64,000 bases of DNA from an uncultured Kofleriaceae bacterium (GCA_964516435.1 CAZEZP010000078.1:118707-182706), one strand, 5' to 3'. Counted from the stretch's first letter, positions 16,947 to 38,523 are shown. Made by a program: numbers and translations. Notes: generated by a model from the letters alone, not told the origin.

Positions 16947-18485
16947 ATGAACATTCCTTTCACTCACATCCAGAGTACCCTGCAACCCTATTCGAAAAAA
17001 ATTTTCTTCGCCCTCACACTGATATTCCTGCATACCCTGGCCGGTTTCCTCCTCATTTTCTTTTCCCGCAAGGTTCAGAGGGACAGTTTTCCCGTCTACA
17101 TCATCTTCATCTTTTCCTTCCACCAGGTTTTTTCCATCTTCGATGACTGGATTCTTTCCGGCCTTTCCCACGCCTGGACGCGCGATACCCGAAGGAACAT
17201 CCTGCAGCAGTACATCCACAAGAAAATGACCATCACCGGAAACAGCCAACACGACTGGAACGAAATCCAGAAAGAAATCTACTGGCTTGGCGAATCCATC
17301 TTTTCCTTCTTTCGGGGCACGTTCCGGCGAGTTCTCCAGATTGCCGTCTTCTCGGCCTTTCTCCTCTATCTTTCACCTGCCCTCTTCCTGTATTGCTTTA
17401 TATTCTTCCTGCTGCTGCTGCTCTTCGGTTTTCTTCATGGCCGGATCATCAATTCCATCCGTTCCCGCTACATCGACACGGAAAGCCGCCTCTCGGTATT
17501 CGAACTGGAGGCGGCCCGTTACCGTGACATCATCGAAATTCACGGCAAAGGTTCGTTCATGGAGAAAATCCACGCATCATTCCTGGATAAATCCATGAAG
17601 AACGCCATGCTTTTCGATCGCATCCGCATGACCCATCATCCCATCCAGGTCATCCTCTTTTTGATTACCGTTGCGTTCATCTTCTACACTGGCAATAACT
17701 GGGTCCAGCAGGGATCCCTGTCTCCCCGGGATTTTCATTCCTTCCTCGCGGGACTTTCGCTTCTGTACACGCCGCTCAGCGGCATTTCGAGCGACGTGGG
17801 AGCTTTCCTGAGCCTGCAGCGGATGAAAAATCTTTCATTCATCCTGCAGCGAAGCGACATTCCGGAATGTTCCTCCATTCGAAATCTCGTGTCCCTCTCC
17901 CGCATATCCATGAAAAATGTTTCTTTTTCCTATGATTCGACTCCCCTCTTCGTCCGGATGAATCTGGAAATCACGGATCCCATTGCAGGTTTTCGCGGCA
18001 GCAACGGTTCCGGAAAAACCACGTTGGCGTTGCTCCTCGCCCGCATCCTTCATCCAAGGGAAGGAAGCATCCGCTTTCTGGACAATCAGAACGAGGAACG
18101 CAGCGACATCGCTATTTCCTATATCGACCAGAATGGTTCCGTATTTTCCCTGAGTCTGGCAGACAATCTCTTTCTCTCCAGAATCGGTGAACTCCACTTC
18201 CTCCAGCATTTCCATGAACTGACGGAAAAAGAATCCGTGGGACCGGAAATTATCTCCGCGGGCCAGAAAAAAGCCGTTTCCATCGAGAGGGCCCTGCAGC
18301 ATCCCTGTTCGCTCCTCATCATCGATGAGCCGGAAAATGCCCTGGATTCCGAAAAAAAACAGATATTGAGAGAAATCCTCCTGGAAAAAAGCCAGAAGGG
18401 CGTCAGGATCATCCTGTTCAGCCACGACGATTTTTTCCTGAAAATTTGCTCAAAAGTCGTGGATATGCAAACCTTGCGGAACTAG
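16947..18485 (+). CDS. ABC transporter permease/ATP-binding fusion protein (exporter type)
   Basis: N-terminal polytopic TM domain, then Walker A GSNGSGKTT, signature ISAGQKK, Walker B LLIIDEPENALD and H-loop FSHD. Noticeably lower GC than its neighbours. Confidence 0.8.
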   Translation: MNIPFTHIQSTLQPYSKKIFFALTLIFLHTLAGFLLIFFSRKVQRDSFPVYIIFIFSFHQVFSIFDDWILSGLSHAWTRDTRRNILQQYIHKKMTITGNSQHDWNEIQKEIYWLGESIFSFFRGTFRRVLQIAVFSAFLLYLSPALFLYCFIFFLLLLLFGFLHGRIINSIRSRYIDTESRLSVFELEAARYRDIIEIHGKGSFMEKIHASFLDKSMKNAMLFDRIRMTHHPIQVILFLITVAFIFYTGNNWVQQGSLSPRDFHSFLAGLSLLYTPLSGISSDVGAFLSLQRMKNLSFILQRSDIPECSSIRNLVSLSRISMKNVSFSYDSTPLFVRMNLEITDPIAGFRGSNGSGKTTLALLLARILHPREGSIRFLDNQNEERSDIAISYIDQNGSVFSLSLADNLFLSRIGELHFLQHFHELTEKESVGPEIISAGQKKAVSIERALQHPCSLLIIDEPENALDSEKKQILREILLEKSQKGVRIILFSHDDFFLKICSKVVDMQTLRN

Positions 18486-18497
18486 GTTATCCGGTCG

Positions 18498-18515
18498 ATG
18501 TTTCACGTGAAACAT
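18498..18515. promoter_or_regulatory. perfect 18-bp palindrome ATGTTTCACGTGAAACAT
   Basis: Located 12 nt after the ABC transporter stop and upstream of the next ORF. Candidate dimeric-regulator site or hairpin. Confidence 0.35.
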
Positions 18516-18546
18516 GACGGAAGAAGTTTTGAAAAAAGGATGAGCG

Positions 18547-19071
18547 ATGCTTCATACATTGATTTTCACGTGTCTGTTTTTTCTGCAGGGAACATCGAAC
18601 GAAACGCCCAAGGATGCCCCGAAGCCCAAGAACGTGGTCGTAGCGAAGTACGATGGCGTATCCCCCCCGAATCCCACACTTCCAAAAGAAATTCCTCCTC
18701 CCGGGGGAAAATGCACGTTGCTGTGGCCGGGTTTCCAATTGCTCGCTTCCCCTGGCGGTTCCCGTTTCTTTTTCCTTTTCAGCGTGCCCTTCCAGTTGCA
18801 AACCCAGGAATTGAGCGCCAATTCCATGCTGGTATATCGCCTGATTGCACCTGGATGCGCTGCATGGGACAAGCACGCATGGCGCGACCTCATCACGCGT
18901 TTTTTCCAGACTCCCATCGAAAAGGTTGGCTTTTACCGGGATGAAAAGGGAACGAAACTTTTCATCGACTTTCTCTTCAAGGATCCGAAATCCACCGTCC
19001 GTCCGAAAATTTCCAATCTCAATTTCATGAACTACTATCTTCTGATCCTGGAATTTCCCCCACAGCCTTGA
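18547..19071 (+). CDS. hypothetical secreted protein
   Basis: AAAGGA Shine-Dalgarno 7 nt upstream. Hydrophobic N-terminus MLHTLIFTCLFFLQG. Confidence 0.45.
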   Translation: MLHTLIFTCLFFLQGTSNETPKDAPKPKNVVVAKYDGVSPPNPTLPKEIPPPGGKCTLLWPGFQLLASPGGSRFFFLFSVPFQLQTQELSANSMLVYRLIAPGCAAWDKHAWRDLITRFFQTPIEKVGFYRDEKGTKLFIDFLFKDPKSTVRPKISNLNFMNYYLLILEFPPQP

Positions 19072-19120
19072 TTATTTCTCGATCCTGAAATTGATTTCGA
19101 TTCCCTGATCAGTTCGATTT

Positions 19121-20155
19121 TTACCCGATTTTGCCGTTTTCCACCTGCCACGCGTGAGAAAAATCCGGATTCTTCCGTCTTCCGGTGATGATCGAATCCA
19201 CACCGAAGTCCTGGATGACACGAACGATGTTGGAAACACGGATTTCATCCATTTCGCTTTCCAGATCATCGAGCAGAACCAGGCAATTTTCGTTCTTCTC
19301 CCGCAACAGGGAAAGGAAGGAAAAATGAAAGGCCAGCAATAGCGCCTTTTTTTCCCCGTTGCTGAAAAAATGGCGGATATCGCGGGAATCCTTCCTGAAA
19401 AGAATCTCATCCTTGTTGCAACCGAACAGGGATTTCTTCTGCATCATCTCCTGCTCGATGGCGTTTTCGGGAATGGAGCGCACCTGATACCGTATTTCCG
19501 TTCCCAGCAACTTCGCGTTCTTTTCGGAAAGGAAGAAATGAAATCTATCCTTCAATGTTTCTTCCAGGAATTTTTTCCGAATGGAGGAAATGGACTGGCT
19601 CGTTTCCGCGAATTCTGCATGATCGATTTGCAGCAATTCCCGCATCTTCCGCGTGCTGGAAAGAAGAATTTGAATGCGCCGGTTGCGCAGATGCTGGTAT
19701 CGATTCAACAAATGGATGTAATGCTCATCCATGTAGGAAATGTATCGGTCGATGATGGAACGGCGGTATTCCAGACTCTGCAGAAAATTTGCCGTATCTT
19801 CAGGTGAAAAATACAGGATGCGCCTGCCGCGGATGAAATCCAGAGCCCCTACGGTCTTTTCATCCCGGAAAAAACTCTTTTTATTTTCTCTTCTCGAGTA
19901 TACGATTTCGCATGAATTTCCGCTGATTTCGGCCTGGATGCGAAAAAAATCCTCCCTGTCTTTCACGCAATCCTGAAAACTCTTCCGGTTGCGGAAACTC
20001 TTGCTCGTGTAGATGGAGAAAACGGCTTCCAGAAAGTTGGTCTTTCCGCTGCCATTGTCTCCATACAGGTAAACGCTTTGAACTTCTTCAGGAAAAGAAA
20101 GATGAAGATGCGCGTAATTGCGGAAATGCGTCAGCGTGATGGATTGCAATTCCAT
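19121..20155 (-). CDS. recF: DNA replication and repair protein RecF
   Basis: N-terminal LTHFRNY...YGDNGSGKTNFLEA Walker A and the SMC-like signature FSNGEKKALLLAF...LLDD near the C-terminus. Confidence 0.92.
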   Translation of the reverse strand: MELQSITLTHFRNYAHLHLSFPEEVQSVYLYGDNGSGKTNFLEAVFSIYTSKSFRNRKSFQDCVKDREDFFRIQAEISGNSCEIVYSRRENKKSFFRDEKTVGALDFIRGRRILYFSPEDTANFLQSLEYRRSIIDRYISYMDEHYIHLLNRYQHLRNRRIQILLSSTRKMRELLQIDHAEFAETSQSISSIRKKFLEETLKDRFHFFLSEKNAKLLGTEIRYQVRSIPENAIEQEMMQKKSLFGCNKDEILFRKDSRDIRHFFSNGEKKALLLAFHFSFLSLLREKNENCLVLLDDLESEMDEIRVSNIVRVIQDFGVDSIITGRRKNPDFSHAWQVENGKIG

Positions 20156-20184
20156 GGAAAGGGAAGAAAAGAAAAAAAGAGAAA

Positions 20185-21297
20185 TCAGTCGATGCGGATG
20201 GGCATGAGAACAGCCAGGAAATTCGACGTATCCACGGGCTTGAAAAGCACGGGACTCTTGGAACTGTGCAGGAACATGGAAAATTCCTTGCCCCTGATTT
20301 TATTGATGATCAGTTCGAAAAATTTGATATTGAAAGCCAATTGCATGGGTTCTCCCACGTAATCGACTTCGATTTCCTCACGGCCCTTCCCTTTGATGGT
20401 ATCGATGCCGCTCATGTGAACGCGGTCCTTCTCTACCTGCAGAATGACGCCGGATTCGGATGAATCGAAGAGCAGACTGATGCGCTTGAGTGCCTGCAGG
20501 AATTCATCCTTGGGCACCACCAGGCGGTTCTCCTTGTATTGCGGAATCACCTGCTCGTAAGGTGGAAACTTGGAATCCACCAGTTTGATATTCATTTTTG
20601 TCGTATCTGTTTTGATTCCAAGAATTTTATTATCACGGTCATAATATAAACCAATATTTATATTATCATCAGACAAGAGTTTGATGATGTCGTTCACTCC
20701 CTTGCGGGGAATGATGATTCCCGAGGATACCTGAAATTTTCCTTCATAAGGATATTCCGCCAAGGCCAGTTTGTGCCCGTCCGTGGCTACCGTTCTGGCG
20801 ATGTTCTTGTCCGTGATGAAATACACGCCGCACAGATGCGGCTTGCTTTCGTCGGTTCCGGAAGAAAACAACGTCAAATCCAGCAGTTCGCGAAGGATGA
20901 ACGCTTCGAAGGAGGTATACAGACTATCTTCGTAAAATGAAAACGTCGGATAATCTTCATCTCTCAAAGATGTAATTTCAAATTGACTTTTTTGACTAAA
21001 TATATTTACTATTGTATCATTTTTTTGAATTTCTATTTCATTTCCAGACAAATTGCTGGCCAGTTGATACAAGAGTTTGCCGTTGACCGTCATCGTGCCG
21101 GGCTGAAACACTTCGCCATTGAATTCCGAAACGACGGAAGTGCTCATATCCGTGGCCTTGCATACGATTTTGCCATCGCTTTGCGCCTGGATCTGGATGT
21201 TGGACAGAATGGGCTGGATGCTCGCGTTTCCTTCGGATATCTTTTGGGGCATGAAAATTCCGTTGAGAAACGTGGACTTGTTCACTGATATTTTCAT
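20185..21297 (-). CDS. dnaN: DNA polymerase III beta sliding clamp
   Basis: 370 aa with the three-domain clamp pattern (MKISVNKSTFLNG...; ...PVLFKPVD...AVLMPIRID). Located immediately upstream of recF as in the canonical order. Confidence 0.92.
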   Translation of the reverse strand: MKISVNKSTFLNGIFMPQKISEGNASIQPILSNIQIQAQSDGKIVCKATDMSTSVVSEFNGEVFQPGTMTVNGKLLYQLASNLSGNEIEIQKNDTIVNIFSQKSQFEITSLRDEDYPTFSFYEDSLYTSFEAFILRELLDLTLFSSGTDESKPHLCGVYFITDKNIARTVATDGHKLALAEYPYEGKFQVSSGIIIPRKGVNDIIKLLSDDNINIGLYYDRDNKILGIKTDTTKMNIKLVDSKFPPYEQVIPQYKENRLVVPKDEFLQALKRISLLFDSSESGVILQVEKDRVHMSGIDTIKGKGREEIEVDYVGEPMQLAFNIKFFELIINKIRGKEFSMFLHSSKSPVLFKPVDTSNFLAVLMPIRID

Positions 21298-21614
21298 GGT
21301 CTACCTCGCCTGCGGCACATTATCCGTTCATTCGGGAGAAATCAACAGGATCCATGAAGATCCATACATGGAGAAGTCTTCTCTGTCGAAAAATGGTGAA
21401 AAGACCAGGATGAAAAGGGAATTTTCATCGACAGGCGGAATAGTCGAAAAAAACGATATCGACATTTTTGCATGGAAACCTGTTCATATCTGGCATGAGT
21501 TGTCATTTTCCTGTTCTTCGGGAGGAAAAATGGGAATAGGGCTACCATCCCCGTTTCTTTCGGAACGATCATGATTTATAACGGCAAGGGAGTCACAACC
21601 CGAAGAGGTCATCC

Positions 21615-24600
21615 ATGATTCGCAAATGTCTGCATTGTGGTTCATCCATTTTCGAAAATGCGACACAGTGTGCCTACTGCTTCAAGGAGTTGGATGAAAA
21701 TTCCATTCGTTTTTCGATAGATGGAATTTCTCATGTCTATGTGAAGAGAGAAAACGAGAAAGTATTCGGTCCTTTTCCCGTCGAAAAGGTCTTGTCGCTG
21801 GTGCGTACCCAGAAACTCAAGGAAACGGAATGGATTTCCGATGACCGCAACGTGTGGGTAGAAGTTTCCAAGATCATCGAATTTCTGCCATCGAAGGATT
21901 CGTCTGTTCTTCCTCATTCTTCTCCGCCGGGCGCCGGTCTGCCAGGGTTGAAGCCGGATTTGCCGGGATTGAAGACCGATTTGCCAGCGATCAAGCCGGA
22001 TTTGCCGGGCATTCGTCCTGACCTGCCGGGATTGAAGACCGATTTGCCAGCGATCAAGCCGGATTTGCCGGGTGTTCGTCCGGATCTGCCGGGTGTTCGT
22101 TCGGACCTGCCGGGTGTTCGTCCGGATCTGCCAGGTGTTCGTCCGGATCTGCCGGGTGTTCGCCCGGATCTGCCGGGTGTTCGCCCGGATCTGCCGGATA
22201 TTCGCCCGGATCTGCCGGAAGAAAAGCAGAAGGAGGAAGAGGAAAGTTCCAGGGAATCGAGAGATTTCTCACTGCCTCCCATCGGTGGTGGCGCTCTTCC
22301 CGAACTCAGAATCGACATGAAATCCAGTCCGCTGGAATTGAAACTCGACGAGTTCATCGGGAAGGCGGAAAATACGCTGAATCCGCAAAATCAGCCGGCC
22401 GGGAATGATATCCGGTCTTCATTGTTCTCTACATCGGAGGGCATCGATTTTTCGGGATTATCTGCTGGAAGCTCACGGGAAAAGGCGGACATGCAGCCAC
22501 TTTCCCTGCAGCCGATGACCGAGGAAAAGACGCTGCCGCTCATGGACGACTCGGATGAAGTGATTCCCGCGACGGCCGAAAAGGCGAAAAAGGAGAGAAC
22601 GAAATCAGAATCCGACCGTGAAAGAAGAGCCTCCCTGCTCCTTCCGCTTCTGCTCCTTCTGGTCGCAGGTGCCGCCGCTGCCGGATTTTTCCTCTTCCAG
22701 AAAAAGGATGCCCGAAAGGAGACGGCTGGACCTTCCATTTCACAGAAAACCGTGACCAAACAGGAAATATCCGACCACGAAAGAAAGATATTGAATCTGG
22801 ATTATCCCGGACTTCTCTCATCCGCATCGGGAAAGGAATTGATCCACTGCGAATCGGCGCTCGCTCTCGTCTGGCTGTTCCATGATTTTTCCAGGGTCGA
22901 AGCCTGTTCGCCTTTCGCTGCCCAGAATCTGGAATCCGGCGGCGCCCCCGCCCTGCGCCGCTACCAGTTCCTGCGCGCCATGGTGCTGGCCAGCCATTCC
23001 AAGGCCTCCTGGATCGACAAGGTCTTTTCATCGAAGAATCCGGTGGATGCCGGGCGCATTGCGGAAGAGATCCTGTCCAGGGCGAAAAGCGAAAATCAAA
23101 ATTCTCCGTTCTGGCGGTTCGTCTGTGGTGTCCGGCAACTGGAACTCGGCAAGAAGGAAAAAGCCCTGGAAGAATTCTCGTTCATTCGCAACACGGAAAC
23201 CACGGTGCCGCCTTCCGTGCTGTTCTTTGCCGCCAAAGCCGGCGACGAGAGCGCGGCGAAGAGCCTCCAGGAAAACCGGGAAGCCGCCTTCTGGAAGGAT
23301 TTGTTCGAAGGCGAGCGCTTCATGAGCGCGCATGAGAAGGATTTCTCGTTCCTGTTCCTGCCGGAGGGCTTTCCTGCGATCGGCAAAGCCGAAAACGGGG
23401 TCGATCACGGTCCGCGCTTCACTTCCCTGCATAGGATGCATGCAGGCATCTCTGCCTGGCAGAAAGGTCTTCTGGACGAGGCCATGACGCTGTGCGAGGA
23501 GGCCTTGAAACTCGATCCGGAATCGGCAAAGCCGTGCAGGAGCCTCCAGGTGTTTCACGGGCAGTTCGGGTGGATCGCCACGCAGGTTCCAGCGCAGCCG
23601 GATGTCGCGCATATCGTTTCGCTTTTGGCCGAAGGCCGCATCCAGACGGCGCTCTCCAACTGGGACGAGTGGAAGAAGGCCAATCCGGAAAAGACATGGG
23701 TGGCCCCGCTGGTGCTGCTGCTTTCCCGCTCCGACCGGGAGGAATGGAAAAAGGCGCTGGATGCCGCGTTGAGCGCAAATATCGAAAAAACACTGGATCT
23801 GCTCTGGGTGGGAATCTGGATTTCGGAGCAGAAAAACTGGATGCGGGAAGACCTGGCTTCCTGGAAGGAAGAAAAGAAACCGCAGGGCGTGTCGATCGAT
23901 GCGTTCCTGGATCTGCTGGATGCCGTTTTGGCTTTCAATCAGGGGGATGCGGAGAATCTCAAAAAGCGTTCGGAATCCGTAAAGGGATCGCCAGCCGTGG
24001 CCCGGATCCTCGAAGGCTTGCAGATGCAGATGGCGATCCAGGCCGACAGGAAGAACGAAAAAGCGGCACGCTGGGCCGAGGAAGCCGCATCATCACTGGT
24101 CGCCGATGCCCGGATAGCCGCTGCGGTCATCCGCATATACACGCTGCTTGGAAAATTGCAGGATGCCCACGTCATTTTGGACAAGGTTCAGGAAAAACTC
24201 ATGGATCCCCAACTGTACCGCGCCGCTGCGCAACTGTACCTGGAGGGCACCCGCATGGACCGCCTCATGCGCGCGCGCTTCTTCGTGGAAAAGGCGCTCA
24301 AGATCAACCCGCAGGATTTCGAGTCGCTGATGGTGACGGGCTTCGTGCAACTGGAGAGCGGACAATTCGACGCCGGCGAGAAATCCCTGGTGCAGGCGGT
24401 TTCCTTCATGGCGCAGCCGGATCCCCGCTGGTTCATGCGCTGGAGCGAACTGGAAAGCCGCCTCAAGCGCTCGCAGATGGCGCTGGCCGCCATGGACATG
24501 GGGTTGCGCAAGATTCCCGACTACACGCCGTTCCTCTTCCGCAAGGCGCAGATTCTCGCGACCCAGGACAAGCCGAAGGAAGCCTTGGAGTTGCTGGAAA

Positions 24601-25052
24601 AGACGAAGAACGCCCAGGGCATCGAAGAGGTGCAGAAGCACATCCTCACGGGACGCTGCCATCTATCCCTGCGCCAGAAGAAGGAAGCCGAGGATGCCTT
24701 CGCAAAGGCCGTCGGGGCGGATGGAGACAACATCCTCGCCCGTTACATGCTCGGAAAGACGGCGCTTTCCAACGGAAACATCCGGATGGCCCTGCCCCAC
24801 CTGGAGGAGGCCGTGAAGAGACTGGAAAAACTCCAGTCGGAACAGCGGATTCCGGAAGAAGCCGCCCACTGGCAGGCGGAAACGGTCGAAAGCATGCTGA
24901 CCGAGAGCTACAGGCTGCTGGGGGGCGCCTACAAGGAAACGGGAAACCGGGCGCAGGCCATCAAGTATTTCAAGAAATACGCAACTCTCGTCCCCGACGG
25001 TCCCATGAAGGACGAGGCCATGCGGATGCTCCTGCTGCTGGGAGGGGAATGA
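21615..25052 (+). CDS. membrane-anchored zinc-ribbon/TPR-repeat protein with a PDLPGVR heptad repeat region
   Basis: N-terminal CxxC...CxxC ribbon, a DUF4339-like segment, 13-14 tandem DLPG[VLI][KR]P heptads, a TM helix LLLPLLLLLVAGAAAAGFFLF, and a long C-terminal TPR-like region. Confidence 0.7.
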   Translation: MIRKCLHCGSSIFENATQCAYCFKELDENSIRFSIDGISHVYVKRENEKVFGPFPVEKVLSLVRTQKLKETEWISDDRNVWVEVSKIIEFLPSKDSSVLPHSSPPGAGLPGLKPDLPGLKTDLPAIKPDLPGIRPDLPGLKTDLPAIKPDLPGVRPDLPGVRSDLPGVRPDLPGVRPDLPGVRPDLPGVRPDLPDIRPDLPEEKQKEEEESSRESRDFSLPPIGGGALPELRIDMKSSPLELKLDEFIGKAENTLNPQNQPAGNDIRSSLFSTSEGIDFSGLSAGSSREKADMQPLSLQPMTEEKTLPLMDDSDEVIPATAEKAKKERTKSESDRERRASLLLPLLLLLVAGAAAAGFFLFQKKDARKETAGPSISQKTVTKQEISDHERKILNLDYPGLLSSASGKELIHCESALALVWLFHDFSRVEACSPFAAQNLESGGAPALRRYQFLRAMVLASHSKASWIDKVFSSKNPVDAGRIAEEILSRAKSENQNSPFWRFVCGVRQLELGKKEKALEEFSFIRNTETTVPPSVLFFAAKAGDESAAKSLQENREAAFWKDLFEGERFMSAHEKDFSFLFLPEGFPAIGKAENGVDHGPRFTSLHRMHAGISAWQKGLLDEAMTLCEEALKLDPESAKPCRSLQVFHGQFGWIATQVPAQPDVAHIVSLLAEGRIQTALSNWDEWKKANPEKTWVAPLVLLLSRSDREEWKKALDAALSANIEKTLDLLWVGIWISEQKNWMREDLASWKEEKKPQGVSIDAFLDLLDAVLAFNQGDAENLKKRSESVKGSPAVARILEGLQMQMAIQADRKNEKAARWAEEAASSLVADARIAAAVIRIYTLLGKLQDAHVILDKVQEKLMDPQLYRAAAQLYLEGTRMDRLMRARFFVEKALKINPQDFESLMVTGFVQLESGQFDAGEKSLVQAVSFMAQPDPRWFMRWSELESRLKRSQMALAAMDMGLRKIPDYTPFLFRKAQILATQDKPKEALELLEKTKNAQGIEEVQKHILTGRCHLSLRQKKEAEDAFAKAVGADGDNILARYMLGKTALSNGNIRMALPHLEEAVKRLEKLQSEQRIPEEAAHWQAETVESMLTESYRLLGGAYKETGNRAQAIKYFKKYATLVPDGPMKDEAMRMLLLLGGE
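21938..22220 (+). repeat. in-frame 21-bp tandem repeat array (about 13.5 copies) inside the TPR protein gene
   Basis: Repeating ccggatctgccgggtgttcgt units coding for PDLPGVR. Confidence 0.7.
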
Positions 25053-25855
25053 GCGTGAAATCCGTGCATGGCAGGGAACTGACCTGGTTTCCGAGCAAGG
25101 CCTTCGGGCAGAACTATCTCATCAATGAGGGTGTGATCCGGAAAATCGTCGATATCGTGTCGGATCATCCAGGGCACGTGGTGGAAATCGGGCCCGGCCC
25201 AGGCGCCCTGACGCAGGAATTGCTCGCCCGCGGCTTTTCGGTGACGGGCATCGAGTTGCATCGCGAGACGGCGGCCGCGCTGCGTGAGAAGTTCGCGGGG
25301 GAGGCACGCTTCGCTCTCGTCGAGGCCGATGCCGCGGAAACCGATTTTTACACTCTGCTTCGATCCCCGAACGATGTGGTGCTAGGCAACCTGCCCTATT
25401 GCGTGGCCTCCCGCATCCTCTTTCAACTGTTCCGGACGGGACGTTCCGCCGCCCGCTGGGTGCTCATGTTCCAGCGCGAGGTCGCCATGCGGATCACGGC
25501 ATCGCCGAAGAGCCGGGATTACGGCCAACTCTCCATCGTTTCCCAACTGGCTTCCTCCCCATCGATGGTATTCCATGTGAGTCCCGGGTCGTTCTTTCCC
25601 GCCCCCGAGGTGGTCTCCACGGTGGTCGCCTTTCGCCCCTTTGCGGAAGCAGATTTGCCCTGGGATGATTTCTCCGCCTGGCTGACGCGGGTCTTTTCCT
25701 TGCGCCGCAAGCAGATGGGCCGCATTCTCGCCACGCTGGCGCCAGGGATCGATGCCGCACGATTGGCCGCCGCCTGCGGCTTCGACCTGAAGCAGCGGCC
25801 AGAGGAACTGCCGGCGCCGGTGCATTGGCGCCTGTTTTGCGAAGTTTTCCCGTGA
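25049..25855 (+). CDS. rsmA: 16S rRNA (adenine1518-N6/adenine1519-N6)-dimethyltransferase
   Basis: KsgA motifs GQNYLINEGVIRKIV, VVEIGPGPGALT, NLPYCVASRIL. The ATG overlaps the stop of the upstream gene (ATGA). Confidence 0.9.
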   Translation: MSVKSVHGRELTWFPSKAFGQNYLINEGVIRKIVDIVSDHPGHVVEIGPGPGALTQELLARGFSVTGIELHRETAAALREKFAGEARFALVEADAAETDFYTLLRSPNDVVLGNLPYCVASRILFQLFRTGRSAARWVLMFQREVAMRITASPKSRDYGQLSIVSQLASSPSMVFHVSPGSFFPAPEVVSTVVAFRPFAEADLPWDDFSAWLTRVFSLRRKQMGRILATLAPGIDAARLAAACGFDLKQRPEELPAPVHWRLFCEVFP

Positions 25856-25907
25856 CAATTTGTCACACGGAACAGCCGCCTTGCATCTTCTCGTGACAAT
25901 TTGTCAT
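25852..25907. promoter_or_regulatory. two copies of the palindromic operator-like motif GTGACAAtTTGTCAC, 41 bp centre to centre, upstream of gspC
   Basis: The first copy is perfect (7-1-7) and overlaps the rsmA stop. The second (GTGACAATTTGTCAt) has one mismatch. TTGCAT lies between them. Confidence 0.4.
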
Positions 25908-26083
25908 GTTTTCGTTTTTTCAATCCCGGCAGGCGCATGGAAAATTCTCGGAAAAACCATGTTTTTTCTTGAAAATTCAATCGAAATCATCATGATGCGG
26001 AATGCTTTTCATCCGGCGCGGTTCTTGCATGCAGAAGGCGCCGGTCCGCATGAGGCAGGAATTTCATCCGCGGGCCCCAATCC

Positions 26084-27019
26084 GTGAAAGATGGCGAAGT
26101 GATGGAAGAACTGAATCGTTTTGCTCCCCATCTCATCCAGGCGCTTTTAGTGCTGGTTCAGGGCGTCGGCGCCGGTGCGCTGGCGGCCAGCGCCGTTTCG
26201 TATTTTTTATACAAAAACCCCACCCATTCCGGAACCGTTCGCCGCCCGGAAACAAAGGCGGCTTCGGCACCGGTCAAACCCCAGTACCAAGCCGATTACA
26301 AGGCGCTTCTCCAGCGCAACATGTTCTGCGCGTCCTGCGATCCCATCCTGGTGGAGGAAACCCCGGCGCCCGGAGACGCGACGGCGGCGGCGGGATCCAG
26401 AGCCGCCACGCTGGAGGGAGCCGCGCTGGTGACCACGATGGTGGCTTCCGATCCGAAGGATTCGCTGGCGACCGTGGTGCTCACGGATCAGTCGGACGCC
26501 AAGTTCGTGCTGCTCTCCGAAGGGGATTCCTTTGGCGACGCCCAGGTGGTTTCCATCGAGCCCAAGCGCGTGGTGTTCATGCAGAACGGGCAGGAGAAGG
26601 TGCTCGAACTGATGGGCGAGCCCAAGAATACGCCGATCGTGGCCACGACGACCCCGCCGCCCGGCATGGGGAACACCGGCCCGGGCGACGACCAGATCCG
26701 CCAGGTGGGACCCAACAAGTACGAGGTGGACCGCTCGGTGATCACGGACTTCATGAAGAACATGGCCACGGCGTCCAGCGGCGCCCGCGTCATGCCGGAT
26801 CCCAACGGCGGCTTCCGCGTCACGTTCGTCCGCTCCTTCTCGATTTTCTACAAACTCGGAATCCGTTCCGGAGACGTCATTTCTTCCGTGAACAACATCC
26901 AACTGGATTCCATCGACCAGACGTTCGCCCTGTACACGAAACTCAAGGACGCCAATCACCTCACGGTGACACTCAACCGCGGCGGCCAGACCATCAACAT
27001 GGATTACTCCATCCGGTAA
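26084..27019 (+). CDS. gspC: type II secretion system protein C
   Basis: N-terminal TM helix and a C-terminal PDZ-like domain (GDVISSVNNIQLDSIDQ...LTVTLNRGGQ), immediately upstream of the secretin gene. Start is GTG 26084 or ATG 26102. Confidence 0.65.
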   Translation: MKDGEVMEELNRFAPHLIQALLVLVQGVGAGALAASAVSYFLYKNPTHSGTVRRPETKAASAPVKPQYQADYKALLQRNMFCASCDPILVEETPAPGDATAAAGSRAATLEGAALVTTMVASDPKDSLATVVLTDQSDAKFVLLSEGDSFGDAQVVSIEPKRVVFMQNGQEKVLELMGEPKNTPIVATTTPPPGMGNTGPGDDQIRQVGPNKYEVDRSVITDFMKNMATASSGARVMPDPNGGFRVTFVRSFSIFYKLGIRSGDVISSVNNIQLDSIDQTFALYTKLKDANHLTVTLNRGGQTINMDYSIR

Positions 27020-27028
27020 GCGTGCCCC

Positions 27029-29704
27029 ATGAAGATGCAGACACTCTCCCTTTCGGTTTTCCTCTCCATCGTTCTGGCGGCTGGATCCGTCTTCGCGCAG
27101 AATCCGCCGATCAACCGTCCTATCAAACCCATGACCCCGGCAGGCCCTTCTGCACCGCCGCCGCCGACACCGCCTCCACCGCCCGGCGGCTACAATCCGC
27201 AGGCCGGAAATCAGCCTGGATCCAAGCAGCCGCCTCCCGGCTCCACGGCGGACGCCGGGTCGGCCAAGGACGACCCCAATTTCAACGAATGCAAGAACAT
27301 CCCGGGTGGCCGCAAACTCAAGGTGACGCTCAAACCGGAGGCCACGCTGGCGGATCTGGTGTCCTGGATTTCCTCCATCACCTGCAAGCGCTTCATCGTG
27401 AGCGCCGGCCTGCGCGCCCAGCGGGTCACCATCTACAGCCCGTCCGAGGTCACGGCATTCGAGGCGTACAAGGCTTTCCTCTCGGCGCTCGAATCCATGA
27501 ACCTGACGATCGTGCAGACGGGATCCTATTACAAGGTGGTGGAAATCCAGGGCGCCAACAGTAATATCATGCCGCTTCGGCGCCCCGGAGAAGACATTCC
27601 CGACAATGAAAGTTTCACGACGGCCATGATCCGCGTGAAGCACGCGAGCGTTCAGGAAATCGCCGAAGTCCTCGGGAAATTCAAGTCGAAGTATGGTGAT
27701 ATTACAACATATGCGCCGACGAATCTTTTAATCATTACAGATCTGGGAACGAGTATCAACCGTTTGCTCAAGATCCTGAAGCAACTCGACGTGGAAGGCG
27801 TGCACGACGAACGCGTGTGGGTGCTCAAGGTCAAGCACGCGGATGCCGAGGAAATCGCAGGGAAACTGCTGGAAGTCTTCGAAATTTCGGATTCGGGATC
27901 CAGCGGGTCATCGCCATCCTTCGGCGGCCGTCAAACTGCGGGCGGCCCCAAGGTGTACAATCCCGGCGGCCAGCCGCAGGGGGGCGGCGGCGTGCAGAAC
28001 GTCGGAACCAAGAGTTCCATTTCCAAGATCATCGCCGAGCCGCGCACCAACAGCCTGATCGTGGTGGCCAACGACAAGGCGTATCTGGAATTGTTGGCAC
28101 TGTTCAATAAACTTGATGTCCCGTTGCCGGGCGGTGAGGAAAAAATCAACATCATCTATCTCGAGAATGCCATGGCCGAAGACATGGCCTCGCTGCTCAC
28201 CGCGCTCACGGGTGGCTCGTCCATGGGCCGTACCAGCACTACGCGCAGCACGCGCAGCACGCGCACGTCCACGTCGCGCAACACCAACACCCGCCAGCCG
28301 CAGCAGAATTTCAATCCTGGCGCCAATCCCTGGGGTGCCGGTGGAACCGACAGCATCTTCCAGGGCCCGGTGCAGGTGCAGCCCGACACGGCCACCAACT
28401 CGCTCGTGATCGTGGCGTCCAACAAGGATTTCCTGGCGCTCAAGCGCGTCATCAAGGAACTCGACCGGCCGCGCCGGCAGGTGTTCGTGGAAGTGACCAT
28501 CCTCGAGGTGTCCCTCGACAAGACGCGCAATCTGGGGCTTTCCATGCATGCCGGAGACCCTATCGGTTCCGGAGATAAGCAATCTATCCTGTTTGGCGGA
28601 TCCATCACCAATTCCTCGCTCAACTCCATCGTGCTCAATCCGCTTTCCCTGATGGGCCTGGCCGTGGGCCTGCGCGGGCCTGAAATCAAGGATGCCGAAT
28701 CCCTGCTGGGCATTCCGGGGCTCACCCTCCCTTCCTTCGGCGTCATGTTCCAGGCGCTGCAGACGGACAATGCCGTCAACGTCATCTCCTCGCCGCACAT
28801 CCTGACCACCGACAACGAGGAGGCCGAGATCACCGTGGGCGAGAACGTGCCGTTCCAGAGCGGCTACAGTTCCATCTCCTCGCTTCTGGGCAGTTCCTCC
28901 ACGTCGCTGACTTCGCTTCCCATGGTTTCCGTGCAGCGCCAGGACGTGGCCCTGCGCCTGAAGCTCACCCCGCACGTGAACCAGAGCGATTTCGTGCGCA
29001 TGGAGGTGGAGCAGGAAATCAATGAAGTGAAATCCATCGACCCGATCGTGGGACCCACCACGTCCAAGCGCAAGGCCACGACGGTGGTGGTGGTCAAGGA
29101 TCAGCAGACCGTGGTCATCGGCGGCCTGATCACCGAGAAGACCAAGGAGAATGTGCAGAAGGTGCCGCTTCTGGGCGACATGCCGATTCTGGGATACCTG
29201 TTCAAGACGACGACGCGCGTCAACGAGAAGACCAACCTGCTCATCTTCATCACGCCCTACATCATCCGCGACGAGAGCGACCTGCGCCGGATCTTCATGG
29301 AAAAGGTCAAGTTGCGCAAGGAATTCATCGACAAGTATTCTTCCTTCAAGGACCACGATTTCGAGGCCGACATCAATTACAAGCACAAGCACGGCTTCTT
29401 CGAGGAGATCAACCGTACGGCCGCCCGCATGGAAGAGGAAGTGGTGCAGCGCAAGAAGGCCATGGACGAATACAAGGTGGTGGATTCCTCTGGGCCCGTG
29501 GGGGTGAGCAAGACAGACGTCAGGAAATTGCAGGATATGCTGCAGAAACTGCGCGAGGAACAGGAAGCCGAGCCCGTGGATCCGGGCGCGGAGGATGGCG
29601 GCAAAACGGACGCGCCGCCCGCCGACGCGGTCCGGCCGGATTCGAAGGACGAGAAGAAACCGGCCGATTCCGGCTCGAAGAAACCGAAATCCCTCCAGCG
29701 GTAA
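27029..29704 (+). CDS. gspD: type II secretion system secretin
   Basis: Signal peptide, N0/N1 domains, and the secretin core (VPLLGDMPILGYLFKTTTRVNEKTNLLIFITPYII). Contains low-complexity Pro-rich and STRSTRSTRTS stretches. Confidence 0.92.
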   Translation: MKMQTLSLSVFLSIVLAAGSVFAQNPPINRPIKPMTPAGPSAPPPPTPPPPPGGYNPQAGNQPGSKQPPPGSTADAGSAKDDPNFNECKNIPGGRKLKVTLKPEATLADLVSWISSITCKRFIVSAGLRAQRVTIYSPSEVTAFEAYKAFLSALESMNLTIVQTGSYYKVVEIQGANSNIMPLRRPGEDIPDNESFTTAMIRVKHASVQEIAEVLGKFKSKYGDITTYAPTNLLIITDLGTSINRLLKILKQLDVEGVHDERVWVLKVKHADAEEIAGKLLEVFEISDSGSSGSSPSFGGRQTAGGPKVYNPGGQPQGGGGVQNVGTKSSISKIIAEPRTNSLIVVANDKAYLELLALFNKLDVPLPGGEEKINIIYLENAMAEDMASLLTALTGGSSMGRTSTTRSTRSTRTSTSRNTNTRQPQQNFNPGANPWGAGGTDSIFQGPVQVQPDTATNSLVIVASNKDFLALKRVIKELDRPRRQVFVEVTILEVSLDKTRNLGLSMHAGDPIGSGDKQSILFGGSITNSSLNSIVLNPLSLMGLAVGLRGPEIKDAESLLGIPGLTLPSFGVMFQALQTDNAVNVISSPHILTTDNEEAEITVGENVPFQSGYSSISSLLGSSSTSLTSLPMVSVQRQDVALRLKLTPHVNQSDFVRMEVEQEINEVKSIDPIVGPTTSKRKATTVVVVKDQQTVVIGGLITEKTKENVQKVPLLGDMPILGYLFKTTTRVNEKTNLLIFITPYIIRDESDLRRIFMEKVKLRKEFIDKYSSFKDHDFEADINYKHKHGFFEEINRTAARMEEEVVQRKKAMDEYKVVDSSGPVGVSKTDVRKLQDMLQKLREEQEAEPVDPGAEDGGKTDAPPADAVRPDSKDEKKPADSGSKKPKSLQR

Positions 29705-29715
29705 GGAATGCACCC

Positions 29716-31464
<1,749 letters not shown>

Positions 31465-31478
31465 CACGAGGAGCCGCC

Positions 31479-32714
31479 ATGCCGCTGTATGCCTACAAAT
31501 GCCTGGATGCCAAGGGAAAGACGGTCAAGGGCACCCGGGATGCCGACACCGAGAAGGCCCTGCGGGCGCTTTTGCGCAAGGAAGGCCTTTTCCTGCAGGA
31601 AGTGCGTCTGGCCACGGAGAAAAAAGGCAGAGGACTCCAGCGCGAGGTGGATTTATCTTTTTTAAACAAGGTATCTTCCGCCTCCGTGGCCGTGTTCACC
31701 CGCCAGTTGGCTACCCTGCTCAAGGCGGGCGTGCCGCTGACCGAAAGCCTGGCGGCCATCGCGGATCAGTTGCAGAGTGACAAAGGACAGAGAAAACTCG
31801 CGGCGCTGGTGGCCGATGTGCGCCGGGTGGTCAACGAGGGCCGCTCGCTGGCGGAAGCCCTGCAGCAGCATCCCAGGGAATTCAATGAATTCTACGTATC
31901 CATGGTGCGTTCCGGCGAAGCCGCCGGCAATCTCGATTCCGTGCTCTTCACGCTGGCGGATTTCCTGGAGCGCCAGCGCCGCCTCAAGGACAAGGTGTCC
32001 TCGGCCATGACCTATCCCGTCATCATGATGTTCATCACGGCGGGCATGGTGGGGCTGCTCATGACCACGGTCGTGCCCAATGTGGTGACGGTATTCGAGG
32101 ACAGCGGCCAGGTGCTGCCCATCTATACGCGCCTGCTCATCGGTGTGAGCCATTTCGTGGGCTCCTACTGGTTCTGGATGCTTCTGTTCCTTGCCGCGGC
32201 CATCTACGGCTTCCGCAAATGGAAGAATTCCCCATCCGGGCGGCGGCGCTGGGATCGCTTCGTGCTCAAGGCTCCGCTGGCGGGCAATCTCGCGCGCATC
32301 CTGGCCGTGTCGCGCTTCTCGAGCACGCTGGGCACCATGCTGCGCTCCGGGGTGCCCATCCTGCAGTCCCTGGAGATCGCCAAGAGCGTCATGGGCAACA
32401 CGCGCCTGCAGGAGGTGGTCGACGACGTGGCCGTGGCCGTGCGCGAAGGCGAGAGCATGGCGCGCGTCATGGAGCGCTCCGGCGAGTTTCCGCCGCTGGT
32501 GAGCCACATGGTCGCCATCGGCGAGAAATCCGGGCAACTCGACCAGATGCTGCACAACGTGGCCCAGGCCTACGACAACGAACTGGAAACGAGCCTCTCC
32601 CGGCTCACCTCCGTGCTCGAACCGCTCATGATTCTTTTCATGGGTGGTATGGTTGCTTTTATTGTATTTTCAATACTCATGCCGATCATGCAAATGAATA
32701 ATATTGGTTTCTGA
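31479..32714 (+). CDS. gspF: type II secretion system inner-membrane platform protein
   Basis: Duplicated GspF/PilC cytoplasmic domains with three TM segments. GAGGAG Shine-Dalgarno before MPLYAYKCLD. Confidence 0.9.
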   Translation: MPLYAYKCLDAKGKTVKGTRDADTEKALRALLRKEGLFLQEVRLATEKKGRGLQREVDLSFLNKVSSASVAVFTRQLATLLKAGVPLTESLAAIADQLQSDKGQRKLAALVADVRRVVNEGRSLAEALQQHPREFNEFYVSMVRSGEAAGNLDSVLFTLADFLERQRRLKDKVSSAMTYPVIMMFITAGMVGLLMTTVVPNVVTVFEDSGQVLPIYTRLLIGVSHFVGSYWFWMLLFLAAAIYGFRKWKNSPSGRRRWDRFVLKAPLAGNLARILAVSRFSSTLGTMLRSGVPILQSLEIAKSVMGNTRLQEVVDDVAVAVREGESMARVMERSGEFPPLVSHMVAIGEKSGQLDQMLHNVAQAYDNELETSLSRLTSVLEPLMILFMGGMVAFIVFSILMPIMQMNNIGF

Positions 32715-32730
32715 TTCAAGGAGATAACTC

Positions 32731-33171
32731 ATGGAAAACACCGAAATCACCCTCGAAAATACCGCTTCTCCCGCCCGGAACGAAAAGCCCCGCCGCAAGC
32801 CGTACGGCATGACGCTCATCGAAATCATGGTGGTCATCGTCATCATGGGTATGGTCATGGGTGCCGTGACGGTGGGTGTGATGTCGTACCTCAAGAAGGC
32901 CAAGAAGAAGACCACGCAGACCCAGGTCAACCGCATCGCGGCCACCATCAACGCGGAAGCCGCCGAGCCCGAGAACAAGGGCAAGGACGCCAAGGCCATC
33001 CTGGAGGGGCTGGTTTCCGACGGCTCCTTCAAGAAGAAGGATCTGCTCGATGCCTGGGGCAACGAAATCCGCGTGGAGAAGCAGGATCGCACGTTCTGCG
33101 TGATTTCGGCCGGCGCCGACGAGAGTTTCGGCACGGGCGACGACATCAAGGACGAGGACTGCGGTGAGTGA
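32731..33171 (+). CDS. gspG: major pseudopilin
   Basis: Prepilin motif G|MTLIEIMVVIVIMG with Glu at +5. AAGGAG Shine-Dalgarno before the ATG. The leader peptide is unusually long at 26 aa. Confidence 0.85.
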   Translation: MENTEITLENTASPARNEKPRRKPYGMTLIEIMVVIVIMGMVMGAVTVGVMSYLKKAKKKTTQTQVNRIAATINAEAAEPENKGKDAKAILEGLVSDGSFKKKDLLDAWGNEIRVEKQDRTFCVISAGADESFGTGDDIKDEDCGE

Positions 33172-33943
33172 ACCCTTCCCGGATGGAATGCCCCGAAAAG
33201 CGCGAAACTGCCGGCTGGAGAGGACCGGGTTGCATGAAACTGGCTTCACGCTGGTGGAAGTACTCACGGTCGTCATCATCGCGGCGCTGCTGTCGGCCGC
33301 CGTGGCCGCGGGCTTTTCCCAGGTGCCCCGCATGAAACTGCGCGAGGCCGCCCGCAAGATGTCCGGCATCATCCGCTTCGTTTCGGGGCGTGCGCGCACG
33401 TCGCGCACCATCCTGCGCCTGGTCATGGATCTGGACCGCGAGGGCTCCACGGTCACCCTGCAGCAGTATCCGCCGGGACAGCCGGCCCCGGTGCGGGACC
33501 CGCGAATCGAGGAGGAAACCGCGGAAAACCTGGAATGGCGCTATGAGAACTGGGTGCGTTTCGACCCGGCCAATCCGGTGGGCCCACTGGGGCCGGCGGA
33601 TACCGGAAAACCGTTCCTGCCGCCTGTAAGCCAGTGGGAAGAGTTGAAGACCGGACTCAAGGCGAGTTTCGCCCTGGAGGACGTGCGCATCGCCCGCGTG
33701 GTGTTTCCCTGCCTCGGTCAGGAATTCGAGGAAGGCAAGGTGGGGCTCGTCTTCCATCCCGACGGCACCAACGAGGGCGCGGTGATCCTGCTGCGCTCCT
33801 CGGGGGATCACGAAATCAGCCTCATCGTGGATCCCATGGACGGCTCCATCCGCTACGAATCCGGATTCACGGTCCCATCCGACCTGTGCGTGGATGCCGC
33901 GGGCAACGAACTGCCGGCAGGAGGCGAAGACGATGCGCAATGA
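33164..33943 (+). CDS. gspH: minor pseudopilin (GspH-like)
   Basis: Prepilin motif G|FTLVEVLTVVII. The listed ORF starts at GTG 33164. An in-frame TTG at 33230 with a GGAGAGG Shine-Dalgarno would give a canonical 5-aa leader (MHETG), so the true start is uncertain. Confidence 0.6.
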   Translation: MSEPFPDGMPRKARNCRLERTGLHETGFTLVEVLTVVIIAALLSAAVAAGFSQVPRMKLREAARKMSGIIRFVSGRARTSRTILRLVMDLDREGSTVTLQQYPPGQPAPVRDPRIEEETAENLEWRYENWVRFDPANPVGPLGPADTGKPFLPPVSQWEELKTGLKASFALEDVRIARVVFPCLGQEFEEGKVGLVFHPDGTNEGAVILLRSSGDHEISLIVDPMDGSIRYESGFTVPSDLCVDAAGNELPAGGEDDAQ

Positions 33944-34658
33944 ATCCGGCTTCACCCTGCTGGAAGTGATGGTCGCGCTGACCATCCTGGGCATGTCGCT
34001 TTTGTGGCTGCTCAAGGGACAGGCGGATTCGCTCGCGCGCAACATCGGCGCGCGCATGCGCCTGCAGGGAATCCATCTGGCCAACTATAAAATGCTGGAA
34101 ACGGAGCAGTTGATGCGCAAGGAGGGATGCGGCACGTTCGAGGGAGAGACGTGCGGGGATTTCGAATCCGATCACCTCGAGGGCGTGGAGCAGTTCCGCT
34201 ACTGTGTTTCCATCGAGAAAATCGAATTGCCCGATTTGTCCATGTTCACCCAGCAACTCTCCGGCGCCCTGGGGGGCTCGGACACCACGGGCGCGGCCGA
34301 TGCGGCAGCCGCCGGCGACATGCAGTTGCCGCCCTTCTTCCAGGACATCCTCTCCCAGTTGATTCCCGGCGGGGGCGGCGACGTGCTTTCGGGACTCTCC
34401 GGCATGATGGGCAACATATTGACCATGGCCATTTCGACCATCCAGAACGTGCTCGAGCAGGCCGTGCGCCGCGTCCGGGTGACGGTGTTCTGGAACCTGG
34501 GAAAACGTCAAAAATCCTATGAACTGATAGCCTTTTTCACGGATCCCACGGTGCTCGACCAGAACATCCTCGATCTTTCGGGACTGGCTGGTTCTCTGAC
34601 GGGAGGATCCTCCCCGTCCGGCGGAACAAATCCCGCTTCCGGAGGCCGAATTCCATGA
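33933..34658 (+). CDS. gspI: minor pseudopilin (GspI-like, extended)
   Basis: MRNESG|FTLLEVMVALTILG prepilin N-terminus. At 241 aa it is longer than a typical GspI. Confidence 0.6.
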   Translation: MRNESGFTLLEVMVALTILGMSLLWLLKGQADSLARNIGARMRLQGIHLANYKMLETEQLMRKEGCGTFEGETCGDFESDHLEGVEQFRYCVSIEKIELPDLSMFTQQLSGALGGSDTTGAADAAAAGDMQLPPFFQDILSQLIPGGGGDVLSGLSGMMGNILTMAISTIQNVLEQAVRRVRVTVFWNLGKRQKSYELIAFFTDPTVLDQNILDLSGLAGSLTGGSSPSGGTNPASGGRIP

Positions 34659-35485
34659 AACGGCCGCTCGGTTTCACCCTGGTGGAAATGATCGTAGCCA
34701 TGACGCTGGTGGCGTTCATGTCCTTCCTGCTCATTTCCACGGTGCGCACCACGCGCGCGGCCCAGGCCGTTTCCGAGGAGCGCTCCGAGCGCACGTTCGC
34801 CGCCGCCGCCGCCCTGGACATGCTGGTTTCGGATATCAATATGGCCTACCTGTCCATGGCCGAAGACGCCACGGTGGAGTTCAAACGCACTTTTTTCAAG
34901 GCTGTCTTCGACCTGGGCGGCATGGACGTGATGTTTTCCACGCTCTCGCACCGTCCTTCTTCGCGCAATGCCAAGGAATCCGATTCCTGCGTGGTGCATT
35001 ACCGCCTGGAGAGGGATCCGGAGAGCAAGGGCCGCTATTCCCTCGTGCGCAGCGAGTCCTACCGGCTGGAAGCCTCCGACCCGCTCAATCTGCCGGCCCG
35101 TACCCGCCGCCTCGTGCGCGGCGTGGCCGTTTTCGAGATGTGGTTTTTCGATCCGACGCGCGACGAATGGATCGACACCTGGGACACCACCACGCTCGAC
35201 GGCCAGAACCAGCGGCTGCCTTCGCTCGTGCGCATCCATCTGGGCGTGGATACGGGCACCGGCTTCATCATGCATTTCCACACCATGGCGCGGCCGCACA
35301 TCCAGGAGCCGCTCAACCTGCTTCCGGCGACGGGCCGCGTGACGCAGTTCAAGACCCAGGAAGGAACCCGCGGCGGCAGCAGCGACGGGTCCAGGCCTTC
35401 GGATGGCTCCTCGCGCCCGTCGCGCCCCGACGGCGGCGGCCCGTCGCGCCCGGTGCGGCCCATCGAAATGCCCAAGGTGCAGTGA
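34655..35485 (+). CDS. gspJ: minor pseudopilin (GspJ-like)
   Basis: MKRPLG|FTLVEMIVAMTLVAF prepilin N-terminus. ATGA overlap with the previous gene. Confidence 0.6.
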   Translation: MKRPLGFTLVEMIVAMTLVAFMSFLLISTVRTTRAAQAVSEERSERTFAAAAALDMLVSDINMAYLSMAEDATVEFKRTFFKAVFDLGGMDVMFSTLSHRPSSRNAKESDSCVVHYRLERDPESKGRYSLVRSESYRLEASDPLNLPARTRRLVRGVAVFEMWFFDPTRDEWIDTWDTTTLDGQNQRLPSLVRIHLGVDTGTGFIMHFHTMARPHIQEPLNLLPATGRVTQFKTQEGTRGGSSDGSRPSDGSSRPSRPDGGGPSRPVRPIEMPKVQ

Positions 35486-35487
35486 CC

Positions 35488-36747: not shown

Positions 36748-36756
36748 GGTCGGCTC

Positions 36757-38505: not shown

Positions 38506-38523
38506 CCGGGGGGAGGTGGACAC

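Follow-up and report, generated by a model that had tools for sequence, protein, structure and literature searches.

The window (the whole 64-kb stretch of DNA that was analysed) carries on its plus strand an rsmA/ksgA gene encoding a 16S rRNA adenine dimethyltransferase (bp 25049-25855; Pfam RrnaAD, E = 6e-38), followed on the same strand by a type II secretion system (T2SS, gsp) operon (bp 26102-40379) in which gspC, gspD, gspE, gspF, the pseudopilin genes, gspK, L and M and a further ORF were identified with Pfam. The first of these genes, gspC (bp 26102-27019, + strand, ATG at bp 26102), matches the NCBIfam model NF041515 (GspC_delta) at 199.5 bits, with a cut-off of 150. Immediately upstream of rsmA is a gene for a 1145 aa protein whose N-terminus, judged from the translation, is zinc-ribbon-like and whose C-terminus has TPR repeats; within it, a 21-nt (7-residue) tandem repeat at bp 21933-22218 encodes PDLPG[VI][RK] about 14 times. 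The G+C content of bp 18000-22000 is 45-48%, compared to about 60% elsewhere, and this segment surrounds recF (bp 19121-20155) and dnaN (bp 20185-21297), both on the minus strand. dnaA is not adjacent to dnaN, and a search for a DnaA-box cluster near dnaN found none.

Two copies of a 13-bp palindrome, TGACAATTTGTCA, are located in the 246-bp rsmA-gspC gap region. The distal copy (site 1, bp 25853-25865) overlaps the rsmA stop codon (TGA, bp 25853-25855), while the proximal copy (site 2, bp 25894-25906) follows at a centre-to-centre distance of 41 bp. Read as 15-mers, site 1 (GTGACAATTTGTCAC, bp 25852-25866) is a perfect palindrome about a central T and site 2 (GTGACAATTTGTCAT, bp 25893-25907) has a single mismatch, at its last base. 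An earlier sequence-only reading of this DNA had described such a pair, one copy perfect and one with a single mismatch, 41 bp apart and with the first copy overlapping the rsmA stop codon, and its description is accurate on each of these points. The TTGCAT hexamer that it placed between the sites is indeed present (bp 25881-25886), but it is not conserved in relatives. As a promoter element this hexamer was rejected, given its lack of conservation, a GG-N10-TTGCA spacing that is wrong for sigma-54, and no usable -10 sequence after it.

The similarity between the two copies extends beyond the palindrome. A 19-nt direct repeat on the plus strand, TTCyCGTGACAATTTGTCA (bp 25847-25865 and bp 25888-25906; TTCCCGTGACAATTTGTCA and TTCTCGTGACAATTTGTCA), is identical at 18/19 positions (95% identity) and reaches 6 nt further 5' than the palindrome, such that its first copy takes in the last rsmA codons. 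Outside of these 19 shared nt, the other 22 nt of the 41-bp units agree at only two positions. A simple (recent) 41-bp tandem duplication can be ruled out, as the remainder of the two units is unrelated. The 13-mer core is found twice in 64 kb, both times between rsmA and gspC. When the window was scored with a weight matrix built from the sites of relatives only (the window sites being left out), both window sites scored 24.3 bits and the next best position in 64 kb scored 11.6, a value that falls inside the range of maxima from 20 shuffles (7.7-16.9).

Seventeen gspC loci were gathered by GspC protein homology, with the motif having no part in the choice: seven from close relatives and ten from more distant Myxococcaceae, of which 8/10 reach upstream of gspC. 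TGnCA-W3-TGnCA was found at the same place in all 15 of the Myxococcota gspC loci with upstream sequence. The sequence-only reading had named two observations that would count against a regulatory role, absence of the motif upstream of gsp in relatives and its scattering through the genome like a REP element; neither was made, as the motif is present in 15/15 of these relatives and has no further copy in 64 kb or elsewhere in the 17 gspC loci. The close relatives are Myxococcota MAGs (GspC identity 60-71%) that also have rsmA upstream and are alignable through the gap. Both sites are kept at the same place in 7/7 of these, with a spacing of 41 bp in six and 42 bp in L007. Averaged over alignment columns, identity among the window and these seven relatives amounts to 0.88 in site 1 and 0.91 in site 2, compared to 0.56 in the spacer between them. 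The distal site reads TGACAAwwTGnCA in L001-L007, L028, L041 and L115, and the proximal site of the relatives reads TGyCAAwTTGnCA. In the resulting consensus, TG[A/T/C]CA-A-W-T-TG[T/G/A]CA, the third base of each half-site varies among the relatives; perfect palindromy is peculiar to the window, which bears two copies of the best consensus. The Myxococcaceae, in which GspC identity is about 31%, have one full site rather than two: AGTGACATTTTGTC is present in 8/8 loci with upstream sequence, together with a half-site 32 bp upstream. Because the sites stand out as conserved islands in the alignment and because their weight-matrix scores contrast with those of the rest of the window, we regard the twin sites as a phylogenetic footprint and as neither a chance occurrence nor a dispersed repeat.

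Downstream of the twin sites is a predicted sigma-54 promoter, CGGCGCGGTTCTTGCA (bp 26014-26029, + strand; GG at bp 26015-16, GC at bp 26027-28). Its core -24/-12 element, GGCGCGGTTCTTGCA (bp 26015-26029), spaces its GG and GC doublets by exactly 10 bp and agrees with 10/12 specified positions of TGGCACG-N4-TTGCW, the two deviations from TGGCAC lying in the window's -24 element (CGGCGC). The pattern GGCNCGRNNNTTGCW has one match in 64 kb, at this promoter. Matches to a loose sigma-54 consensus are not enriched in the window (six found, 11.8 expected), a count that is uninformative, and taken alone the window's -24/-12 block would be suggestive only. The same stretch (bp 26015-26029) is covered by a conserved block, GGnCCGGTTCTTGCA, with an identity of 0.94 and a fit to GGC.CGr...TTGCW, and GG..CGGTT.TTGCA is invariant in 11 members of the window's lineage. 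A -24/-12 element is located 35-75 nt before gspC in every lineage examined. It is canonical (TGGCAC-N5-TTGCT, 35-45 nt before gspC) in the Myxococcaceae, Myxococcus hansupus, Stigmatella and L123, and near-canonical (TGGCAT-N5-TTGCT) at the equivalent place in L051. Transcription from the window's promoter is predicted to start near bp 26040.

Metagenome contigs were also scanned for the twin pattern TGNCAAWWTGNCA-N28-TGNCAAWWTGNCA, which was found at at least 119 loci. Most of these are A/T-rich noise or tandem arrays, and the set is unreadable as a regulon. Sigma-54 promoters near the twin-site matches are about threefold more frequent than in control windows (28 of the 119 listed matches versus 44/515), a comparison made rough by matches that themselves contain TGGCA. 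At least six of the loci lie directly upstream of a gspC homologue. Three (L028, L041 and L115) belong to the window's own lineage, while the other three (L051, L103 and L123) represent deep lineages with GspC proteins 23-31% identical and different upstream neighbours. Each of the deep-lineage loci has a 41-bp pair, then a -24/-12 element, then gspC (L051, TGGCATGAAGATTGCT; L123, TGGCACAGAAGTTGCT; L103, TGGATCGTTTCTTGCG). As it is found in deep lineages with other upstream neighbours, the module of motif, sigma-54 promoter and gspC is, judging by these sequences, much older than the rsmA-gspC junction.

Other scan loci are of separate interest. In L051, a hybrid histidine kinase gene (HisKA and receiver domains; L051:3191-4795) is located about 1 kb upstream of the twin sites and is a possible sensor gene for the L051 circuit. 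Two unrelated high-G+C contigs (L080:3830-4121 and L132:541-700) have twin 13-mers 41 bp apart (TGTCAATTTGACA twice in the former, TGCCAATTTGACA and TGTCAATTTGTCA in the latter), each pair followed by a canonical sigma-54 promoter (TGGCACGGCCTTTGC and TGGCACGCGGTTTGC, respectively) and then by dnaK; this order suggests that a chaperone gene is controlled there by an enhancer-binding protein (EBP), from an enhancer laid out in the same way. Arrays of tandem repeats with a period of 41 bp and one TGTCAATTTGACA-type palindrome per unit are found at L042:2387-2650 (six or more units) and also in L040, L076, L066 and L127, and are iteron-like in appearance.

The position of the sites with respect to the promoter differs between the window and its relatives. 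The gap is about 45 nt longer in the window, and the distances from the site centres to the -24 GG downstream are 115 and 156 bp, compared to 70 and 111 bp in the relatives. Across lineages, the proximal site lies 51-134 bp and the distal site 92-175 bp upstream of the -24 GG; with the 45-bp difference between the window and its relatives, the site-promoter distance shows no constant helical phase across lineages. In an alternative alignment (A3), window site 2 is placed onto site 1 of the relatives, and a degenerate 13-mer, TGGAAAATTCTCG (bp 25938-25950), is aligned with their proximal site. This 13-mer is 29 nt before CTTGAA, compared to 28 nt for the proximal site of the relatives, and its weight-matrix score is below those of the listed matches; it is possibly the decayed ancestral proximal site. 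The inclusion of the last rsmA codons in the first copy of the 19-nt repeat suggests that, in the window's lineage, site 2 arose from site 1 by copying or conversion. Based on alignment A3 and on the 19-nt identity that takes in rsmA-derived flank, a one-step enhancer shift is suggested, in which the window's lineage gained a distal copy and its proximal site decayed.

Between the sites and the promoter is an A/T-rich tract (bp 25907-25995; 89 bp) with 36% G+C, compared to 62-63% in the flanking genes. It contains phased A- and T-runs and a palindrome, TTGAAAATTCAA (bp 25969-25980), and about 45 nt of it are missing from the relatives. Lying between enhancer and promoter, it is a candidate for a DNA bend or for the binding of an architectural protein. 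A near-invariant 22-nt block, AAATCATCATGATGCGGAATGC (bp 25984-26005, + strand), is located 24 nt upstream of the -24 GG and has the consensus AAATCATGATGATGCGGAATGC, with a mean column identity of 0.97 across eight sequences. The block is near-invariant in 8-11 relatives despite a GspC identity of 60-71%, and is conserved more than the twin sites. Candidate roles for it are the site of a second regulator or of an architectural protein, or the -10/start region of a sigma-70 promoter. A small ORF over the block (MMRNAF...) was rejected, as the position of its stop codon differs between L001 and L007. A GGAAT-containing element recurs in Myxococcaceae intergenic regions (GGAATCTTCC, GGAATAATTCC) at a distance other than that of the 22-mer, and a further block, TTTTCCTTGAA, is conserved in the alignment of the window's lineage. 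A sigma-70-like match, TTGAAA-16-CATGAT, is located at bp 25969-25996, with both hexamers conserved in the lineage (TTGAAw-16-sATGAT); gsp may have an additional promoter here, immediately before the sigma-54 promoter. In the predicted gspC 5' leader of the relatives (L001:2945-2990 and equivalents) there is an inverted repeat, ATGAACGG...CCGGGTTCAT, with a weaker ATGAGG...TTTCAT inverted repeat at bp 26040-26075 of the window; this leader repeat possibly forms a hairpin. A search of bp 25600-26300 against Rfam returned no known RNA family at E ≤ 1.

The twin 13-bp palindromes are probably an upstream activator sequence (UAS; enhancer) for an NtrC response-regulator-type EBP that would drive the sigma-54 promoter of the gsp operon, their presumed target. 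The enhancer sites of EBPs are dyad-symmetric, are usually present in two or more copies and lie about 70-200 bp upstream of the sigma-54 promoter. With their centres 115 and 156 bp from the -24 GG, the two palindromes fall within this range. Points against this reading are the lack of an EBP gene next to gsp in the window, the two deviations in its -24 element, the lineage-conserved sigma-70-like match, the variable distance between sites and promoter and the single full site of the Myxococcaceae. The proposal of the sequence-only reading that the paired sites serve a dimeric regulator of gspC-N is supported by the comparison with relatives, amended as follows: because a conserved -24/-12 promoter lies 115 and 156 bp downstream of the sites, they look like a UAS rather than the operator of a repressor.

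The main competing explanation is that a dimeric regulator other than an EBP (a repressor or a class I-type activator) acts on the sigma-70-type promoter TTGAAA-16-CATGAT, and that this promoter drives gsp. We consider this unlikely, although it has several points in its favour. The match is the sole one in the region, with its TTGAAw and sATGAT hexamers in lineage-conserved blocks; in the close relatives, the centre of the proximal site is near -58 of this promoter, a classical activator position; and palindromes of 13-15 bp are typical of many HTH dimers. In the window, however, the sites would be near -103 and -144 of the sigma-70-like promoter, too far for contact activation or occlusion. 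In addition, the -10 candidate is weak (4 of 6), and the sigma-70 element is not visible in L051, L123 or the Myxococcaceae, which keep the motif together with sigma-54 promoters.

Alternatively, the palindromes could act in RNA, with site 2 alone, or sites 1 and 2 paired, forming an intrinsic terminator hairpin that ends the rsmA transcript. Site 2 can fold into a 7-bp hairpin (-6.4 kcal/mol) followed by UUUUCGUUUUUU, which was flagged by a consensus scan, and pairing of site 1 with site 2 can give a long hairpin (-22.2 kcal/mol, z = -3.1) that ends at the same U-run. We nevertheless judge this explanation very improbable for several reasons. First, the U-run lies within the roughly 45 nt that are present only in the window, and the relatives have no T-run after site 2. 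Second, the terminator stem is short and A/U-rich, with three G-C pairs for its -6.4 kcal/mol, and does not qualify as a Rho-independent terminator. Third, the conserved positions are TG.CA...TG.CA and the variable bases, which show no co-variation, are mostly unable to pair between the sites; because they usually cannot pair, the pattern of conservation points to protein contacts rather than to a stem. Fourth, the motif is kept in L051, L103 and L123, where no gene ends at it, and the region has no family match in Rfam. The last explanation, that the pair arose by a local duplication and has no function, or that it belongs to a dispersed repeat of the REP or MITE kind, can be dismissed almost entirely: the 19-nt identity does run into rsmA-derived flank, indicating a copying event, and 41-bp-period tandem arrays with similar 13-mers exist in unrelated metagenome contigs (L042, L040 and L076), but the window's two copies are both at this locus, none is found elsewhere in the 17 gspC loci, and the sites are kept at the same place and spacing across lineages with 30-70% GspC divergence.

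If the sites are an enhancer for an EBP, its gene might be expected among the neighbours of gsp in some lineages, and such a gene is present in the Myxococcaceae. In 8/8 Myxococcaceae loci with upstream sequence, the order is EBP gene, TGACGTTCCGCCC, AGTGACATTTTGTC, promoter and gspC, with AGTGACATTTTGTC 32 bp after the conserved TGACGTTCCGCCC and a textbook promoter, TGGCACCGGGCTTGCT, about 35 nt before the gspC ATG. The EBP has REC, Sigma54_activat and HTH_8 domains and a GAFTGA loop. The order EBP gene, site, TGGCAC-N5-TTGCT, T2SSC and GspD was also found in two cultured complete genomes, those of Stigmatella aurantiaca (CP002271; TGACAAATTGTCC, then TGGCACTTGGCTTGCT) and Myxococcus hansupus (CP012109; TGACAATTTGTCT, then TGGCACCTGGCTTGCT). 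Because nla4 of M. xanthus is MXAN_2516 (PMC11980068) and its GspD is MXAN2514 (PMC3222651), we infer from synteny, using the M. xanthus locus tags alone, that the EBP at the position upstream of gspC is Nla4. None of the EBPs reached an NCBIfam equivalog cut-off by which it could be named. At another locus, L113, an EBP gene precedes twin sites, which are followed by a canonical sigma-54 promoter and then by a gene for a response regulator; the L113 EBP shares 49% identity (434 bits) with the Nla4-type protein and 42% (333 bits) with the EBP of the window.

In the window, no EBP gene adjoins gsp and rsmA precedes the sites instead. The sole EBP in 64 kb (about bp 4020-5477) shares 44% identity with the Nla4-type protein, a value at the level of a paralogue, and its recognition helix differs. 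Based on this identity and recognition helix, and on the closer relationship of the L113 EBP to the Nla4 type, the window's own EBP was rejected as the cognate regulator. It is an NtrC-type protein (REC, Sigma54_activat and HTH_8 domains; GSFTGA loop) encoded within bp 3684-5480, and its gene is followed by a penicillin-binding transpeptidase gene; no TGnCA-W3-TGnCA was found near it. The regulator that acts on the twin sites would instead be an orthologue of the EBP encoded upstream of gspC in the Myxococcaceae (the Nla4/MXAN_2516 position), encoded elsewhere in the window's genome.

In the enhancer model favoured here, dimers of the phosphorylated regulator would bind both sites; with about four helical turns between the sites (41 bp, or 3.9 turns), both dimers should sit on the same face of the helix. 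The bound dimers would then assemble into an active AAA+ ring, the A/T-rich tract would loop the DNA, with or without an architectural protein, and the ring would remodel the sigma-54 RNA polymerase bound at bp 26014-26029, such that transcription of gspC-N would start near bp 26040. More tentatively, and with slightly less than an even chance of being correct in our estimation, this may be an ancient Myxococcota module in which the TGACA-W3-TGTCA enhancer, mostly as a 41-bp pair, is recognized by a dedicated NtrC-type response regulator (in M. xanthus, Nla4) that switches on the T2SS via sigma-54, the arrangement outlasting the move of the regulator gene away from gsp.

Loss of nla4 results in slow growth, altered ppGpp and failed development. 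Myxococcota are predatory and social, and their T2SS exports hydrolases and lytic enzymes and is the route by which MYXO-CTERM proteins reach the cell surface. If the module is as proposed, the secretion machine would be the direct target of Nla4, and a secretion defect could underlie the pleiotropic phenotype of nla4 mutants. This would offer a concrete direct target for an activator that is known only via pleiotropic phenotypes. The conserved enhancer and sigma-54 promoter also make up a testable circuit, for which the motif is defined, the promoter predicted and a candidate regulator available. For annotation, the motif and the -24/-12 element together show where the gsp operon begins in several Myxococcota lineages. 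The literature searched contained no description of T2SS regulation in Myxococcota, no binding site or direct target for Nla4 and no paper that mentions nla4 together with type II secretion. Elements of this kind are textbook material. For the specific motif, for its association with the T2SS across Myxococcota lineages and for the implied relationship between Nla4 and gsp, that literature gave no account, and an earlier description is possible.

Several characterized enhancers resemble the twin sites to differing degrees. The paired 5-W3-5 dyads agree in geometry with the EBP sites of LuxO and NorR, and twin dyads are also known for NmpR, which speaks for an EBP as the regulator. A PspF-type UAS was rejected, as the E. 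coli pspF-pspA intergenic region has no TGnCA-N3-TGnCA. The NorR enhancer boxes of E. coli norV (GT-N7-AC, for example TGTCAATTTGACT), the core of which is essential for binding (PMC2831303), are closely similar as a string (TGTCA-W3-TGAC), occur at multiple sites and have IHF bound between them and the promoter. NorR, however, needs GT...AC at exactly the positions that vary in the gsp sites (GA...TC in the window), its three sites are 21-22 bp apart, and it is a GAF-domain NO sensor rather than a response regulator. An identity as a NorR box was rejected because the GT-N7-AC core (PMC2831303) is not kept, the window having GA-N7-TC and the position being variable in relatives. At the qrr promoters of Vibrio, two copies of the LuxO UAS, TTGCAWWWTGCAA, are located upstream of a sigma-54 promoter (PMC10162802). 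The geometry is identical to that of the gsp sites, in which two 5-bp arms flank an A/T triplet to give a palindrome of 13 bp, but the arms are TTGCA rather than TGACA, and LuxO is a gammaproteobacterial quorum-sensing regulator whose regulon is not homologous.

Within the Myxococcota, NmpR of M. xanthus cooperatively binds two sites (S1 and S2) of the form GCGCA-N5-TGCGC upstream of sigma-54 promoters (PMC11841059). This system shares with the gsp sites its phylum, the presence of two dyad-symmetric sites upstream of a -24/-12 promoter and, for the regulator, a REC-AAA+-HTH architecture. It differs in half-site sequence and spacing (N5, compared to N3 in TGACA-W3-TGTCA), in the edge-to-edge gap between sites (14-15 bp, compared to 28 bp for gsp) and in its target, which for the gsp sites is the T2SS; binding at the gsp sites is predicted only. 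The comparison with Nla4 (MXAN_2516) is based on gene position. The window's lineage differs in having rsmA, not an EBP gene, before its sites, while by locus tags Nla4 occupies the EBP position directly upstream of gspC-gspD, and in M. hansupus, Stigmatella and eight MAGs the motif and a canonical sigma-54 promoter come after an EBP gene located at that same position.
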